This document shows positions 4,286-29,591 of a stretch of 31,504 nt of DNA, in pieces. The notes beneath the pieces were generated by a model. It worked only from the letters and a program-made list of their open reading frames with translations. It made no database searches and was not told the DNA's origin. The stretch is from positions 1 to 31,504 of the forward strand of contig NC_008696.1 of NCBI RefSeq assembly GCF_000015225.1. The letters run 5' to 3'. Source of the stretch: Thermofilum pendens Hrk 5 (lineage in GTDB: Archaea > Thermoproteota > Thermoprotei > Thermofilales > Thermofilaceae). Positions within the stretch are counted from its first letter, which is position 1, and each line of letters begins with the position of its first letter. A program made the position numbers and the translations under genes.

Positions 4286-4301
4286 CTACAAAATTTTGTG
4301 G
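4286..4301. promoter_or_regulatory. Palindrome box copy (CTACAAAATTTTGTGG, 1 mismatch)
   Basis: Lies 4 nt after the stop of 4306..4677 and 20 nt upstream of TATA 4258-4265. A T5 run follows on the minus strand. Confidence 0.85.
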
Positions 4302-4305
4302 TTAT

Positions 4306-4677
4306 TCAGACCCCTACCTCCGCCTCCCACTGCGCGTACGCCTCCTCAACCAAGCTGTAAAGCTCCTCCGGAGTGTGCACCTTCTTCTTGAACTTGCCGT
4401 CCGTGATGTCGTCGAGGTAGTGCCAGAGAGGAACCCACGAGAGAACTCGGGCACCCGGCCCGTACCACCCCTCGGTCTCGCTCCTAAACACGTAGCCGAA
4501 CTCCTCTTCGCCTTTAGGTCGAATCACCGTTACGTGCTCGTGTACCTCGACGAACCCTCCGGGGCACTTCAAGAAGTACACGGCTTCACCCTTCCCGCCG
4601 ACACTCTTGGACGGCGGATACACTTGATGCACTACGATGCATCCCCCCAGCATCGGTACAGACGCCTTACGGTTCAT
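4306..4677 (-). CDS. Paralogue 2 (divergent) of the LGGC...PEELY family
   Basis: 123 aa with MLGGC...KCPGG...TPEELY. The ATG overlaps the TAA of the upstream paralogue by 1 nt (TAATG), so the two are co-transcribed. Confidence 0.7.
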   Translation of the reverse strand: MNRKASVPMLGGCIVVHQVYPPSKSVGGKGEAVYFLKCPGGFVEVHEHVTVIRPKGEEEFGYVFRSETEGWYGPGARVLSWVPLWHYLDDITDGKFKKKVHTPEELYSLVEEAYAQWEAEVGV

Positions 4678-5147
4678 TATACCTCACCCCGCGGAAGAGT
4701 GAATGCCAGCTCGCCCGACTCGACGTAAGCCTTGCTAGACCTCCACTTGTTGTAGGCTCTGCGGGCCATGCCGTAAAGCTCCTCCGGAGACTCGACCGAC
4801 TCGACCCTTGTAACCACCGGTTCAACCTCGTCAACGTCGAACCCCATCGACTCCAACGCTTCTCTAGGCTCATCGTACAAGCCAATCGACGACAAAACGT
4901 CCGACAAAGACGTATCGGCGTTGAACAGCCTGTCCCCCGCAACCTTCAACAGCCAACCGTCCTCGCTCCTAAAGAACGCTTGCTCCGTAACCGTATTGTC
5001 GCGACGCACGGTAACCGATACGTGCTCGGGCTCGACGTACGCCTCTCCACGCGGACACTTCAACAGAAAGCCCTCCCCGTAACGCTCAACCCTACAGCCC
5101 CCCAGCATCGGCTTTTTGAGTTCGAAGTGAGGATACCTCTTGCTCAT
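4677..5147 (-). CDS. Paralogue 3 of the LGGCRVER...SPEELY family
   Basis: I start it at the ATG at 5147 (MSKRYPHF...), 23 nt downstream of TTTTATA (plus 5171-5178). The track ORF start at 5198 would run through the TATA box and the palindrome. Confidence 0.7.
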   Translation of the reverse strand: MSKRYPHFELKKPMLGGCRVERYGEGFLLKCPRGEAYVEPEHVSVTVRRDNTVTEQAFFRSEDGWLLKVAGDRLFNADTSLSDVLSSIGLYDEPREALESMGFDVDEVEPVVTRVESVESPEELYGMARRAYNKWRSSKAYVESGELAFTLPRGEV

Positions 5148-5170
5148 CGAGAAACACGAGACCGGAGGAG

Positions 5171-5189
5171 TATAAAAGCGTTGACGGGG
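5171..5189 (-). promoter_or_regulatory. Type-A promoter core for 4677..5147
   Basis: Identical 19-mer tataaaagcgttgacgggg. The ATG lies 23 nt downstream of the TATA. Confidence 0.7.
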
Positions 5190-5194
5190 AAAAG

Positions 5195-5210
5195 CCACAA
5201 AATTTTGTGG
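5195..5210. promoter_or_regulatory. Palindrome box copy (perfect CCACAAAATTTTGTGG)
   Basis: Abuts stop codon 5211-5213 and lies 16 nt upstream of TATA 5171-5178. Confidence 0.9.
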
Positions 5211-5588
5211 CTATTCGTAGACCTCGCCGTACCTCTCCCTCAACCTACGCTTGACCTCCTCGATGTCCTCCTCCCAAGCGGTGTACACGGACTCAGCCAT
5301 GCCGTAAAGCTCCTCCGGAGACTCGGCTTCCTCCTGAAAGCCTATCGACGCTAAAGCCTCGCTGAAAGGTCTGGCGGGGTACCTCAAGTCCCTGCCCTCC
5401 ACGCTCACATCGCCCTTGTAGAAAGCCATCCTGTTGTCCTCGAAAAGGAACACCGCACCCTCCTCGCTCACCACCGCGTTACCGCGCCTGCAGACAACCC
5501 TGTAGCCCCCCGGTACACGCTCAACCCTACAGCCCCCGAGCGTGGGCTTCCTCAACAGGTACTGCCTCAACCGCCTATACTCCTCCAT
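5211..5588 (-). CDS. Paralogue 4 of the LGGCRVER...SPEELY family
   Basis: I start it at the ATG at 5588 (MEEYRRL...), 25 nt downstream of TTTTATA (plus 5614-5621). The stop codon abuts palindrome 5195-5210. Confidence 0.7.
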   Translation of the reverse strand: MEEYRRLRQYLLRKPTLGGCRVERVPGGYRVVCRRGNAVVSEEGAVFLFEDNRMAFYKGDVSVEGRDLRYPARPFSEALASIGFQEEAESPEELYGMAESVYTAWEEDIEEVKRRLRERYGEVYE

Positions 5589-5613
5589 CGAGACCGTAGA
5601 ACCGTACACGCGC

Positions 5614-27476: not shown

Positions 27477-27606
27477 CTTTACCGTCAGCCTAAAAAGCCC
27501 CCGCGCCCCCCTATACCCGATGAAGTGGTGGAGAAAGCTCATGACGATAGGGAGCCCGATACCGCTACAAACTAGAGAAACCTACCTAGGCACCCCGCTG
27601 GAAAAA

Positions 27607-27629
27607 GAGAGAAAAAAGACTTTATTTTA
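27607..27629 (-). terminator. Related oligo-T terminator block
   Basis: gagagaaaaaagactttatttta at the stop of 27627..27818. Confidence 0.5.
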
Positions 27630-27818
27630 GAGGATTAGCTGGGGCGTGTACCCGGCTCCGCCTACCGGGCAACCCTTAGCCCGGGCTATGTTCTCGATGT
27701 ACGTAGCCGCCTGTACCTGTCCCATTAGGCGGAAGCCGTTGGCTAGGCTTTCAAGCGCCTCGCAACTGGCGAGGGCGAGGGTGTTTCTGTCGAGCTTGAC
27801 CTTGACCACGCTTGTCAC
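27627..27818 (-). CDS. Small protein (63 aa), own promoter
   Basis: CTTTAAAG lies 24 nt upstream, and GAGGT directly precedes the GTG start. Confidence 0.55.
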   Translation of the reverse strand: MTSVVKVKLDRNTLALASCEALESLANGFRLMGQVQAATYIENIARAKGCPVGGAGYTPQLIL

Positions 27819-27843
27819 CTCTTAGCTAGTCGTTGTAGGCGCT

Positions 27844-28041
27844 TTAAAGGGCGCCGATGCTGACGAAGAACGCCTTGAGCCCGCTCTCCCAGTTGGGAGC
27901 CCACTTCTGACCGACTATCTGAGCCATTCCAGCCCTGCATCTGTCAACGTTGAGACCGGGGAATATCCTTGCGGCGAACTCGCAGTACTTGACGGGGTAC
28001 TTTGCCTCGGTCTTCCTAATTATGTACTCGGGTACCGGCAT
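27844..28041 (-). CDS. Small protein (65 aa), own promoter
   Basis: AAACGAAAGCTAAAACTTATAAAC (BRE/TATA-like) lies ~33 nt upstream. Confidence 0.6.
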   Translation of the reverse strand: MPVPEYIIRKTEAKYPVKYCEFAARIFPGLNVDRCRAGMAQIVGQKWAPNWESGLKAFFVSIGAL

Positions 28042-28093
28042 GTCTGGTCACTCCCAATGGAGGGCTTCCCGTTTATAAGTTTTAGCTTTCGTT

Positions 28094-28309
28094 TTACGGC
28101 TTCACCGTGGGAGGCACGGGCTTGGTAGCCACCCTGTAGTACCCGTTACCGATGTTGCAGACGAGGACGGCTACCCTGTTCTTCTGGAACCAGAAGACGA
28201 CGCACTCGTTTGGGTTGAGCTTGCTGAAGTTGTAGTCCGCGTAGTCTGTTGTAGTCACGGGTATCGTCTCTACTAAACTCAGCCCCTGAAGCTGGAGCGT
28301 GCTCGGCAT
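28094..28309 (-). CDS. Small beta-rich protein (71 aa)
   Basis: TATTTAAAGG lies ~29 nt upstream and is shared with the divergent gene. Confidence 0.6.
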   Translation of the reverse strand: MPSTLQLQGLSLVETIPVTTTDYADYNFSKLNPNECVVFWFQKNRVAVLVCNIGNGYYRVATKPVPPTVKP

Positions 28310-28377
28310 ACCTTTTCGCCTTTAAAGGCTCCCCCCACCTTTAAATAGTTGTCTCTCCCTTCTTAGCCCGATGAGCA

Positions 28378-28872
28378 ATGATTAGCCCGATAATCCTGCT
28401 CCTGTTGATATGGCTGGGCACCAGCATAGGCATAGTGTTCGTGACCCTCAACGAGTACATCAAGGAGAACGGAAAGCTCGACGTAGCCGCCGCGTTATTC
28501 GCACTAAGAGAACTATCGGCGATTGCCCTCCAGTTCATATGGCTGATAGTCCTCCTCCACGTCTGGGGCTTCCTAGACATCAGAACCGAGCTGGGTTGGA
28601 CGGCGCAGATACCCGATTTGAGCACGCCTCAGGGGCAGGCGGCGTACGTCTTCATCTTCGCGAGTCTGGTAATCATCGCAATCCTCTACGCTGAGGGATA
28701 CGTCAACCTCGCGTTCACGGTGGCGGTGTTCAGCGGGGTAGCGATGCTCGGCTACATAGACGCCAACGTGTACTTGCAGTTGCTCGGCATAGGAGTAGCG
28801 ATGCTCGCGGTCTTCGCCTACGTCTTCAGGAGCGAGCTAGAAGAAGAGCTGAGGCGCTGGAAACTCCGTTAA
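28378..28872 (+). CDS. Membrane protein (164 aa, ~5 TM helices)
   Basis: CTTTAAATAG lies ~30 nt upstream. Product is hydrophobic. Confidence 0.7.
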   Translation: MISPIILLLLIWLGTSIGIVFVTLNEYIKENGKLDVAAALFALRELSAIALQFIWLIVLLHVWGFLDIRTELGWTAQIPDLSTPQGQAAYVFIFASLVIIAILYAEGYVNLAFTVAVFSGVAMLGYIDANVYLQLLGIGVAMLAVFAYVFRSELEEELRRWKLR

Positions 28873-29591
28873 AAACCCTCCTCTTTTTCTCCCCCTTCTT
28901 CCTCCTCGCCCAACTCCTCCAAGTCCACCTCCTCGAACTCGGGCTCCCCTTCTTCTCCGCCCCCCTCGGGATTAGCCACAAAATTTTGTGGCTTTTCGCG
29001 GGGGAGCCGCGGCTTGACGGGCACGGGGGGAGGCGGGGGCTTGACCTCTACCGGTTGAAGGGGCACCTCGACGACCTCGGGCTTCAAGCCCTGAACCCTC
29101 GAGACGTAGTAGAGGTAGGGGTCGTTGTCCGGCGTGAAGTAGCCGCTAGCCACGTAGCCAAGCTGTGGAGCCACGTAGAACGAGTTTCTCCGAGCCAGTA
29201 TAGCCCTGAAATCGCCCCGCCACACCAAGTGCCCCGTCACCACGGTGTCCTCGCCCGGTCTAAGCCTCGCAAGCTCGCCTCTCAGGTAGCTGAACGAGGG
29301 GTCTCTGAACCTGATTCGGGGGTTGAACCTCAGCAATTCGAAGACGGTGAACGCGAAGGCAGGGTCAACGTCCACAGGAAACTCCAGTATGAAGGTGCAC
29401 CTCCTGTTCAACCTGCTGAGAATGGCTAAGCTGTGGAGGTCTGAGACGTCGTGTATCAACACCACGTACTCGCCCATCGGCAGAACCTTGGGGCTCAGGT
29501 CGTTGAGCCAAGCCACCACGTCCCTCCCAGCCGCCACGTCCGCGTCAGTCTCCCACTTGACCCTCGTGACCGGTCTCCTGTCCGCGCTCAC
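28869..29591 (-). CDS. Hypothetical protein (240 aa) with a Pro-rich then acidic tail
   Basis: The GTG start is preceded by GGAGGT at a 7-nt spacing. A palindrome copy lies in frame in the tail (EKPQNFVANP). Confidence 0.65.
   Translation of the reverse strand: MSADRRPVTRVKWETDADVAAGRDVVAWLNDLSPKVLPMGEYVVLIHDVSDLHSLAILSRLNRRCTFILEFPVDVDPAFAFTVFELLRFNPRIRFRDPSFSYLRGELARLRPGEDTVVTGHLVWRGDFRAILARRNSFYVAPQLGYVASGYFTPDNDPYLYYVSRVQGLKPEVVEVPLQPVEVKPPPPPVPVKPRLPREKPQNFVANPEGGGEEGEPEFEEVDLEELGEEEEGGEKEEGF
28976..28991. promoter_or_regulatory. Palindrome box copy (perfect) inside a CDS tail
   Basis: In frame in 28869..29591, encoding PQNFV. The flank is ATTAGCC. Confidence 0.8.

Follow-up and report, generated by a model that had tools for sequence, protein, structure and literature searches.

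The 31,504-bp stretch of DNA analysed here (the window), which we take to be the complete circular plasmid pTPEN01 of the archaeon Thermofilum pendens Hrk 5, carries fourteen near-identical copies of a 16-bp perfect palindrome, CCACAAAATTTTGTGG (hereafter the box), most of which lie at the boundaries of its transcription units. We tentatively interpret the box as a dispersed, dyad-symmetric operator or boundary element that would be recognised as duplex DNA by a dimeric protein encoded by pTPEN01, a reading suggested by the pattern of conservation and by comparison with a related plasmid. We infer that a protein binds the box, that this protein is of plasmid origin and that its binding would influence transcription, whether by repression or by activation.

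Identification of the box and its symmetry

A search of the window permitting up to three mismatches recovered eight exact copies and exactly six more, all of them with a single mismatch (Table 1), thereby reproducing every coordinate of the eight perfect and six imperfect copies claimed in a first-pass annotation of this DNA. Dinucleotide shuffles give an expectation of only 0.00–0.02 copies, in keeping with the claim of that annotation that the box lies far above chance. The copies span 24.7 kb of the 31.5-kb plasmid and, two chance pairs aside, the box is the sole multi-copy palindrome of at least 12 bp in the window. An extension of several copies to 24 bp had also been suggested; this holds for the copy at 19828, and no other copy is perfect over that length. 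Effectively, the dyad consists of AG-box-CT, i.e. 20 bp (AGCCACAAAATTTTGTGGCT), in most copies, and once the flanks are oriented the consensus becomes wwTAG-CCACAAAATTTTGTGG-CTTTTC. The central AAAATTTT is unchanged in 13 of the 14 copies and ACAAAATTTTGT in 12 of them, and each of the five stem mismatches is confined to one side of the dyad, uncompensated on the other. Conservation stops sharply and symmetrically at 16–20 bp, and the adjacent flanks vary.

Placement of the boxes at gene boundaries

As the gene set we took 54 open reading frames (ORFs) chosen by codon-position GC content, a selection made possible by the characteristic profile of real pTPEN01 genes (GC1≈0.6, GC2≈0.4, GC3≈0.75). 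Against an intergenic share of 14.7% of the plasmid, 11 of the 14 boxes are intergenic (P=1.6e-7). The placements described in the first-pass annotation were recovered with little change: five boxes lie 0–4 nt past the stop codon of a minus-strand gene; nine lie upstream of the next TATA-like element, at distances of 16, 16, 17, 19, 21, 35, 49, 87 and 92 nt (15–91 nt had been claimed); one includes a GTG start codon, at 13806; three lie within the 3' parts of ORFs (9225, 10480 and 28976); and six are followed by T4–T6 on the minus strand. A sixth copy at a gene end (23624) lies 2–4 nt past the D box of a C/D-box small RNA (sRNA)-like gene. All three ORF-internal copies are read in one frame as (P/L)-Q-N-F-(V/E).

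The promoters of pTPEN01 conform to a pattern of two elements: first a sequence resembling the TFB-recognition element (BRE), AAACGA(W)AG or CAACGC, and then a TATA box, which is either TTTATWA or a T-rich run. Start codons occur 22–37 nt past the TATA box, implying that the mRNAs are leaderless or nearly so. We also considered the box itself as a TATA box, but its distances to start codons do not fit. A cruciform and a methylation site were likewise considered and are not favoured. Many gene ends bear, directly past the stop codon, a box-less module of the form YTAAAAY-N5-T6-7-CTCTC, which probably has a dual role as terminator and as the BRE and T-rich TATA box of the next leaderless gene. 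At 7717, 19828, 23624 and 27461 such a T6–T7 module or a T-run is already present ahead of the box, which assigns these four boxes to the promoter that follows and not to the gene end before them. Among the five boxes situated 16–21 nt upstream of TATA-like elements, four face clear TATA boxes and that at 6795 a weaker one; one of the five serves gene 26940..27413, which is non-homologous to the paralog family served by three others. A cassette composed of the box, a T-run and CAACGC-TTTTATAG precedes three of the four paralogs in the tandem array at 3846-5588. At the Zn-ribbon gene, the box at 13794 lies across the position where transcription is expected to start. In addition, a 57-nt promoter module precedes unrelated small genes in five copies, with a full box upstream in two, a half-box in one and none in two.

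Comparison with the related plasmid pHA1

A tblastn search of plasmids with the pTPEN01 helicase recovered GU722198.1, 'hyperthermophilic archaeal plasmid 1' (pHA1), a circular element of 33.8 kb. Homologues of 22 of the 54 pTPEN01 ORFs are found on it, with 25–77% identity and in syntenic blocks. We observed that pTPEN01 and pHA1, which comes from a Yellowstone enrichment, constitute one family, with common blocks that include the integrase, a split helicase and membrane proteins; this kinship was not found stated in the literature searched. In pHA1 there is no box even at three mismatches and no multi-copy palindrome of at least 12 bp, and AAAATTTT occurs once only. The box-less boundary and promoter module is common to the two plasmids (for example ACTCTAAACGATAGGTTTTTTT and ACACTAAACGAAAGGTTTTTTT), and in pHA1 the start codons lie 23–30 nt past its T-run.

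Eight to nine boxes occupy one fixed spot in this ancestral module, between the '...ATAG' part and the T-run. The filled site at 5637 reads, on the minus strand, AAAACGATAG, CCACAAAATTTTGTG, TTTTTTCTCC, and an empty counterpart at 12752, upstream of gene 12776, reads AAAAACGATAG, G, TTTTTTCTCC; the two differ by the box alone, with no target-site duplication. As the module is common to pHA1, the TAG and T-run flanks of the box are explained as parts of the ancestral module. This comparison of sequences shows the box to be a pTPEN01-specific addition at the spot where the BRE would abut the T-rich TATA box.

Protein alignments with pHA1 further establish that the boxes at 9225 and 28976 are located inside bona fide genes. 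The former sits in a low-complexity linker between N- and C-terminal parts conserved in pHA1 gp42, and ORF 8952..9350 and gp42 have, besides these conserved ends, a box linker of equal length. There is no signature of insertion at either site: at 9225 there is no net change in length, and at 28976 no insertion coincides with the box. From homology to gp47, position 27413 is the true start of the 26940 gene, and the box at 27461 is therefore intergenic.

Duplex site or transcript end

The first-pass annotation had offered an operator and a hairpin-type terminator or insulator as alternatives. The core hairpin is predicted to have a free energy of -5.5 kcal/mol at 37 °C and of 0 at 88 °C, which is about the growth optimum of T. 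pendens. With flanks, 28 strand-specific folds range from 0 to -3.4 kcal/mol at 88 °C, with energy parameters extrapolated to that temperature; six of the nine T-run-linked hairpins are predicted at ~0 kcal/mol there, and the minus-strand hairpin at 4286 reaches merely -0.4 kcal/mol at 37 °C. The GTAG variants at 4286, 6480 and 10480 result in a C·A mismatch, not a G·U pair, on the T-run strand. A hairpin-type terminator is thus unlikely in terms of both stem stability and pairing conservation, for a U-tract is available at nine of the 14 copies but the predicted ΔG is weak at 88 °C, and the loop is constant in 13 of 14 copies and the stem mismatches uncompensated. Taken together, an invariant would-be loop, uncompensated mismatches and predicted melting at ~88 °C favour sequence-specific recognition over an RNA hairpin. 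pTPEN01 moreover already possesses box-less T6–T7 modules at its gene ends, a further point against the classical form of terminator.

A broader alternative, less likely in our estimation yet a serious rival, is that a transcript-end element is formed in the nascent RNA by the box together with its T-run, either as a hairpin with a U-tract or as a hairpin-free double U4-tract (UUUUGUGGCUUUU). Archaeal termination occurs at U4 tracts with aCPSF1 and requires no hairpin, and the double U4-tract, to which aCPSF1 binds, is its most efficient form (PMC8716108). Two U4 tracts are present at nine boxes and the internal T4 alone at five, so that the U4 of the box and that of the flank could contribute to hairpin-independent termination at nine sites. 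Several aspects of placement point the same way. The six boxes at gene ends (five past stop codons, one past a D box) lie where such an element would be expected. In nine of 14 copies a run of at least four T residues starts no more than 3 nt from the box on one side or both, a situation found in 13% of the remaining intergenic windows (P≈1e-5), and the run is downstream with respect to incoming transcription in eight of these nine. The ORF-internal copies never have a T-run on the sense strand: it is antisense to the ORF in all three, and at 10480 and 28976 it is directed toward a convergent plus-strand gene. The box-linked runs are also short (T4–T6) in comparison with the T6–T7 of the box-less modules.

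On the other hand, five boxes (6795, 7717, 13794, 18876 and 19828) have no adjoining T-run, and four boxes already lie downstream of a T6–T7 module or T-run. The T-run itself belongs to the ancestral module, which lacks a box in pHA1 and elsewhere in pTPEN01, and hence its adjacency to the box may merely reflect where boxes are placed. Archaeal U-tract terminators (aCPSF1/FttA) resemble the box with its flank in having two U4 tracts within ~14 nt at gene ends (PMC8716108), but differ from it in lacking a conserved non-U sequence and in requiring no dyad. Since archaeal termination proceeds without a hairpin, the terminator reading offers no explanation for why the CCAC/GTGG arms are invariant and the 'loop' identical. 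Of the alternatives in the first-pass annotation, therefore, the sequence-specific site is favoured and the classical hairpin terminator is not, while the adjacency of T-runs does fit a hairpin-independent form of terminator.

A possible mechanism and the evidence against it

If the box is a duplex operator, a homodimeric, sequence-specific DNA-binding protein of pTPEN01 would recognise the 16-bp dyad at about 11 transcription-unit boundaries. Occupancy between the A-rich '...ATAG' part, which is the BRE position, and the T-run would control the following promoter and would also hinder read-through from the upstream unit. In five units the promoter would lie 16–21 bp from the bound box, and at the Zn-ribbon gene the box would cover the start site. 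One protein could in this manner co-ordinate small accessory and regulatory genes, much like the stoperator-type repressors of temperate actinophages.

Several observations weigh against such an operator. The spacing of 16–92 nt between box and TATA box displays no helical phasing, and hence no single promoter geometry. The T4–T6 runs at nine boxes, eight of them along incoming transcription, are how a transcript-end element would look. Six boxes lie 0–4 nt past a gene end, where a constitutive roadblock would halt polymerase ahead of the stop codon. Sub-families of flanks (GTAGCCTTTTTC, CTTTTCGCGG, CTAATCC and CTATTCAG) and a half-box relic suggest a copy-and-paste spread, for which no function is required. 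Finally, as there is no relative with the box, cross-lineage conservation is unusable as evidence of selection.

The copy-and-paste possibility corresponds to a selfish or neutral palindrome, akin to repetitive extragenic palindromes and bacterial interspersed mosaic elements (REP/BIME) or to miniature inverted-repeat transposable elements (MITE), that gene conversion or some transposition-like process would have carried from one similar boundary module to another and that would have no dedicated function; we consider this improbable. REP/BIME and the promoter-early stem-loop (PeSL) cassettes of phage T4 are near-identical short palindromes past stop codons or between convergent genes, sometimes with a promoter, and recur throughout a genome. 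The box is lineage-specific in being absent from pHA1, it occupies a fixed spot in a recurrent target (...ATAG, box, T-run), and the filled and empty sites at 5637 and 12752 form a convincing pair. Its flank sub-families recur across unrelated contexts: GTAGCCTTTT(T)C is found at 4286, 6480 and 10480, CTTTTCGCGG at 6480, 10480, 23624 and 28976, CTAATCC at 6795, 7717, 9225 and 28976, and CTATTCAG at 4286, 18876 and 23624. The half-box relic occupies an intergenic region paralogous to that of the box at 23624, with the right box half and the spacer absent, and the in-frame copies are tolerated in disordered parts of proteins.

However, the sharp and symmetric end of conservation at the dyad, with differing flanks, is unlike recent conversion tracts, and the lack of an insertion signature at 9225 and 28976 is likewise at odds with a mobile palindrome. 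We detected neither target-site duplications nor terminal repeats, and no transposase, RAYT or HUH gene among the ORFs scanned with Pfam and PHROG. REPs are by comparison chromosomal and mobilised by RAYT transposases, and PeSLs are longer and include a promoter, the pTPEN01 unit being just 16–20 bp. Scatter over the host genome, as known for REP and MITE, was not seen either, the box being absent from a 9-kb host-type chromosomal sample (see below).

A link to the shuffling of gene cassettes has been proposed for palindromes of the REP/PeSL type, and the boxes could be envisaged as recombination sites of the Xer-like tyrosine recombinase encoded at 30662..31498, bounding cassettes of promoter and gene that could be exchanged, much as integron attC sites or T4 PeSLs do. 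We regard this as very improbable, and an archaeal integron- or PeSL-like cassette-shuffling system with crossover at a 16–20-bp symmetric site would be an equally remote prospect. The geometry is compatible with a core site, with two inverted arms of 8–10 bp around an A/T centre, and the encoded recombinase shares 37% identity with XerA of the host. Flank types to the left and right of the box are combined in several ways, the break in the half-box relic falls close to the centre of the dyad, and tandem paralogous cassettes are present at 3846-5609; these features are compatible with cassette shuffling but do not require it. Natural core sites, however, have asymmetric centres of 6–8 bp and number one or a few, whereas the centre AAAATTTT is palindromic and would permit recombination in either orientation, scrambling the plasmid; a replicon with fourteen active sites would be unstable. 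The integrase of pHA1 is homologous (38% identity), yet that plasmid has no box.

It is hardly likely, too, that the boxes are segregation or genome-structuring sites, be it dispersed parS-like centromeres or sites of packaging or condensation. Bacterial parS sites are 16-bp palindromes in several dispersed copies, and the virus-like secreted proteins of the plasmid make packaging conceivable. Against this, no ParA/ParB, AspA or SegAB-like domain was detected among 30 scanned ORFs, a set that covers the ORFs of at least 200 aa with two exceptions, or among the candidate regulators. The boxes are tied to transcription-unit boundaries and to the promoter module rather than to one region, and the related plasmid pHA1 has none.

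Candidate binding proteins

Four regulators had been named in the first-pass annotation as possible binders of the putative operator (Table 1): a ribbon-helix-helix (RHH) protein, a helix-turn-helix (HTH) protein, a winged HTH (wHTH) protein and a Zn ribbon. All four are plausible, and none is singled out as the binder. The RHH gene is the sole candidate gene flanked by two perfect boxes (6795 and 7717), and the gene for the Zn ribbon, which resembles ORF131 of Pyrobaculum spherical virus (PSV), is the only one with a box over its own start. The model of the 119-aa protein displays an N-terminal wHTH-like unit of three helices and, beyond it, a long helical hairpin that could be a dimerisation domain; its structure gave local, non-significant matches to the DNA-binding domains of Lrp/AsnC, DeoR and Z-alpha proteins. 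PDB sequence searches and Foldseek with the candidate regulators returned nothing significant. Homologues in pHA1 are absent for all four candidates, which fits a plasmid-specific pair of protein and site and does not discriminate among the four.

Distribution of the box

Searches for the box outside pTPEN01 were negative. A scan of IMG/VR gave 29 single chance matches only, and a scan of metagenomes at least 120 stretches, with no relative among the matches listed. The 17-mer CCACAAAATTTTGTGGC matched 99 stretches of species-representative genomes, all of them single matches in unrelated bacteria or metagenome-assembled genomes and none in Thermofilum, in a collection whose inclusion of the T. 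pendens chromosome is unverified. A 9-kb host-type contig, which encodes a protein identical to T. pendens XerA, contains no box at up to three mismatches and no AAAATTTT, although the density on the plasmid would predict about four boxes in 9 kb. The first-pass annotation had held that an equal density in the host chromosome would mark the box as a generic host repeat, and neither this contig nor the genome scan gives any indication of it. PSV, which was examined on account of the ORF131-like domain encoded by pTPEN01, has no box and no multi-copy palindrome.

Close relatives of the plasmid were also not encountered, either in IMG/VR or in searches of phage and plasmid DNA. In the protein collection the pTPEN01 helicase has no homologue, and a 624-aa secreted protein has just two partial homologues, on 4-kb contigs without boxes. 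The box sequence was not found in the literature searched, which did not extend to the T. pendens genome paper or the pHA1 paper. Separately, five unrelated low-GC metagenome contigs (GC 43–48%) were observed to contain dense CCACAAA(A)TTTTGTGG-TATA-CCACAAA arrays, in one contig at both ends. We judge these arrays, of the type CCACAAAATTTTGTGG-TATA-CCACAAA, to be unrelated to the pTPEN01 box; they look like iterons or terminal repeats of another small replicon.

Comparison with known systems

Precedent for action at more than 20 sites, located in promoters and in the short spaces between genes, comes from phage repressors (PMC9283540; PMC10276819). The stoperators of mycobacteriophage L5 (bound by gp71) and other cluster A phages, and of the Streptomyces phage R4, are like the box conserved, element-specific and multi-copy; the genomes in question are of 30–50 kb, there are more than 20 copies in L5, and the sites are likewise in promoters and short intergenic spaces (PMC9283540, PMC10276819). 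They differ in being 13-bp, asymmetric, monomer-bound sites in one orientation only, whereas the pTPEN01 core is a perfect dyad in which the flanks alone are oriented. Moreover, they belong to bacterial-phage systems, and the host of pTPEN01 is an archaeon with TBP/TFB promoters, for which we have candidate repressors only. The box thus has the many near-identical copies and the promoter or intergenic location of stoperators, but because its core is symmetric it is not a member of that class.

The conserved inverted repeats (CIRs) of phage phiC31 (Ingham et al. 1994; Smith et al. 1999) are said to be of ~17 bp and to occur at more than 12 intergenic loci, where the phage repressor reportedly binds them, as shown experimentally, with one copy autoregulating the repressor gene. 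Many intergenic copies of a conserved inverted repeat are thus a feature in common with the box; the differences are that the CIR system is bacterial and that binding has been demonstrated. Operators of dimeric wHTH or Lrp/MarR-type proteins, such as the OhrR site TACAATT-AATTGTA, have short arms, an A/T-rich centre and a homodimer as ligand. Although they too are dyads of 15–20 bp, there are one or a few per regulon promoter rather than 14 at gene boundaries. The OhrR structure 1z9c appeared as a non-significant match in the PDB search with the candidate regulators.

Gene map and other features of pTPEN01

Table 1. Positions of the boxes, recurrent modules and candidate binding proteins in the window
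Feature	Position	Strand	Form	Context
Box 1	4286..4301		CTACAAAATTTTGTGG, one mismatch (GTAG variant)	4 nt past TGA stop of gene 4306..4677(-); minus strand continues CCTTTTTC; TATA 4257-4264 of gene 3846..4226(-) 21 nt downstream
Box 2	5195..5210		Perfect, 20-bp palindrome	Abuts TAG stop of gene 5211..5609(-); minus-strand T4 next; TATA 5170-5177 of gene 4677..5147(-) 17 nt downstream
Box 3	5637..5652		ACACAAAATTTTGTGG, one mismatch	Interrupts ancestral module: AAAACGATAG, box, TTTTTTCTCC; TATA 5613-5620 of gene 5211..5588(-) 16 nt downstream
Box 4	6480..6495		One mismatch (GTAG variant)	4 nt past TGA stop of small acidic ORF 6500..6706(-); T-runs on both sides (minus-strand T5); TATA 6385-6392 of gene 6000..6362(-) 87 nt downstream
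Box 5	6795..6810		Perfect	2 nt past TAA stop of RHH gene 6813..7586(-); no adjoining T-run; weaker TATA-like element 6768-6775 19 nt downstream
Box 6	7717..7732		Perfect, 18-bp palindrome	TATA 7617-7624 of RHH gene 6813..7586(-) 92 nt downstream
Box 7	9225..9240		One mismatch	Within ORF 8952..9350(+), read P-Q-N-F-E; T-run antisense
Box 8	10480..10495		One mismatch (GTAG variant)	35 nt inside 3' end of gene 10445..10912(-); plus-strand T-run CCTTTTC, facing convergent gene 9859..10311(+)
Box 9	13794..13809		CCACAAAAATTTGTGG, central mismatch	10 nt past TATA 13776-13783; includes GTG start 13806
Box 10	18876..18891		Perfect, 22-bp palindrome	Abuts TAG stop of gene 18892..19323(-); no adjoining T-run
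Box 11	19828..19843		Perfect, sole perfect 24-bp palindrome (19824-19847)	TATA-like element 19785-19792 35 nt downstream; precedes conserved promoter module and 32-codon ORF 19749..19651(-)
Box 12	23624..23639		Perfect	2-4 nt past D box of C/D-box sRNA-like gene 23644-23691(-); minus-strand T5 next; TATA 23567-23574 of gene 23125..23532(-) 49 nt downstream
Box 13	27461..27476		Perfect	TATA 27437-27444 of gene 26940..27413(-) 16 nt downstream
Box 14	28976..28991		Perfect, 20-bp palindrome	In acidic C-terminal tail of ORF 28869..29591(-), homologue of pHA1 gp54; plus-strand T-run CTTTTC, facing convergent gene 28378..28872(+)
Half-box relic	24259..24267	-	CTACAAAAT	7 nt past D box of second C/D-box sRNA-like gene
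Box-less module	27, 1758, 8050, 12729, 14262, 15401, 17314, 23098, 23698, 24386, 27608 (approximate starts)		YTAAAAY-N5-T6-7-CTCTC	
57-nt promoter module	19768-19824, 23550-23606, 24200-24256, 25010-25066, 26128-26184	-	GCGTTTAGCCCCG...AAACGAAAGGTTTATTAGCTACCCCGTTT	Five copies
Four paralogous small genes	3846-5588	-	GGCxVER motif, conserved C-terminal SPEELY	Tandem array; homologous to pHA1 gp58
Candidate binder, RHH-like	6813..7586	-	257 aa, motif N-terminal	RHH_1 E 0.003 (below cut-off); PHROG Arc-like repressor E 0.0026
Candidate binder, HTH	9503..9862	+	119 aa	HTH_24 E 0.003 (below cut-off); model pLDDT 91
Candidate binder, wHTH per first-pass annotation	13276..13575	+		No family match
Candidate binder, Zn ribbon and long helix	13806..14255	+	149 aa	PF22415 25.3 bits (cut-off 27); 2x5c E 0.014

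Some further features lie close to boxes. An inverted repeat, CCACACCG-N9-CGGTGTGG, at 6434-6458, 21 nt from the box at 6480, has the CCACA/TGTGG ends of the box with a different spacing, and could be a variant site or a coincidence. The 32-codon minus-strand ORF at 19651-19749 (MPRKIPKKQVPINVYLDQRTLTEYLSPQPQKN) is similar to the RHH protein at its N-terminus. The pentamer TAGCC/GGCTA, which forms the immediate flank of the box (TAGCCAC...GTGGCTA), is the most frequent one in pTPEN01, with 318 occurrences on both strands, and its excess amounts to ~5x the uniform expectation as against ~2x in the 9-kb host-type contig. Two C/D-box sRNA-like genes lie in tandem at 23644-23691 (-) and 24275-24323 (-), and both comprise C box GTGATGA, a 10–12-nt guide, D' box CCGA, C' box GTGAGGA, a 12-nt guide and D box CTGA. 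Their matches to several archaeal C/D families stay under the gathering score (28.8 and 19 bits for sR33), and a methylation guide RNA carried by a plasmid would be unusual.

The box-free stretch at 22082-23124 consists of ~1 kb of non-coding DNA with the lowest GC content of the plasmid (46%). It is dense in GGCTATTAGCC, TTAGCC and GGCTAA palindromes and TCGACT repeats, contains four repeat units of ~66 nt at 22246-22533, and is likely to be the replication origin. A repeat of ~96 nt containing GGGGCTTTTGGGCTATACCCCG occurs in three copies (18749-18844, 19893-19988 and about 22990-23085), the first two of them 78% identical, and could represent a small RNA or a promoter region. Three plus-strand genes (10818-12032, 12044-12730 and 15432-17306) encode proteins with a signal peptide and a C-terminal membrane anchor, two of which end in ...E(E/G)L(V/E)I(E/V)(I/V)G. 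The product of ORF 15432..17306 is 100% identical to a hypothetical protein of T. pendens, and the helicase and the integrase gave the same result. The superfamily 2 (SF2) helicase at 20180-22081 is closest to those of lipothrixviruses, and the PSV ORF131-like Zn ribbon (13806-14255) adds to the virus-like content. With such content, pTPEN01 may not be a plain plasmid but a provirus-like episome.

Implications

Very little is known of how transcription is organised on plasmids and viruses of the Thermoproteales and Thermofilales, and pTPEN01 is an orphan element with a single recognisable relative. A 16-bp dyad at nearly every boundary of an accessory unit, absent from that relative, offers a sharply defined and cheap experimental handle. 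A docking site shared in many copies is known from some bacteriophages; for archaeal plasmids and viruses the sources searched contained no description of one. Should a protein indeed bind the box, this could be the first global network in the style of stoperators or CIRs on an archaeal extrachromosomal element, none having been met with in those sources, and it would be a naturally occurring operator with the BRE position on one side and a T-rich TATA box on the other. Should the box act instead in RNA, it would represent a sequence-defined terminator operating at ~88 °C, with a bearing on the use of structure and of specific factors in archaeal termination.

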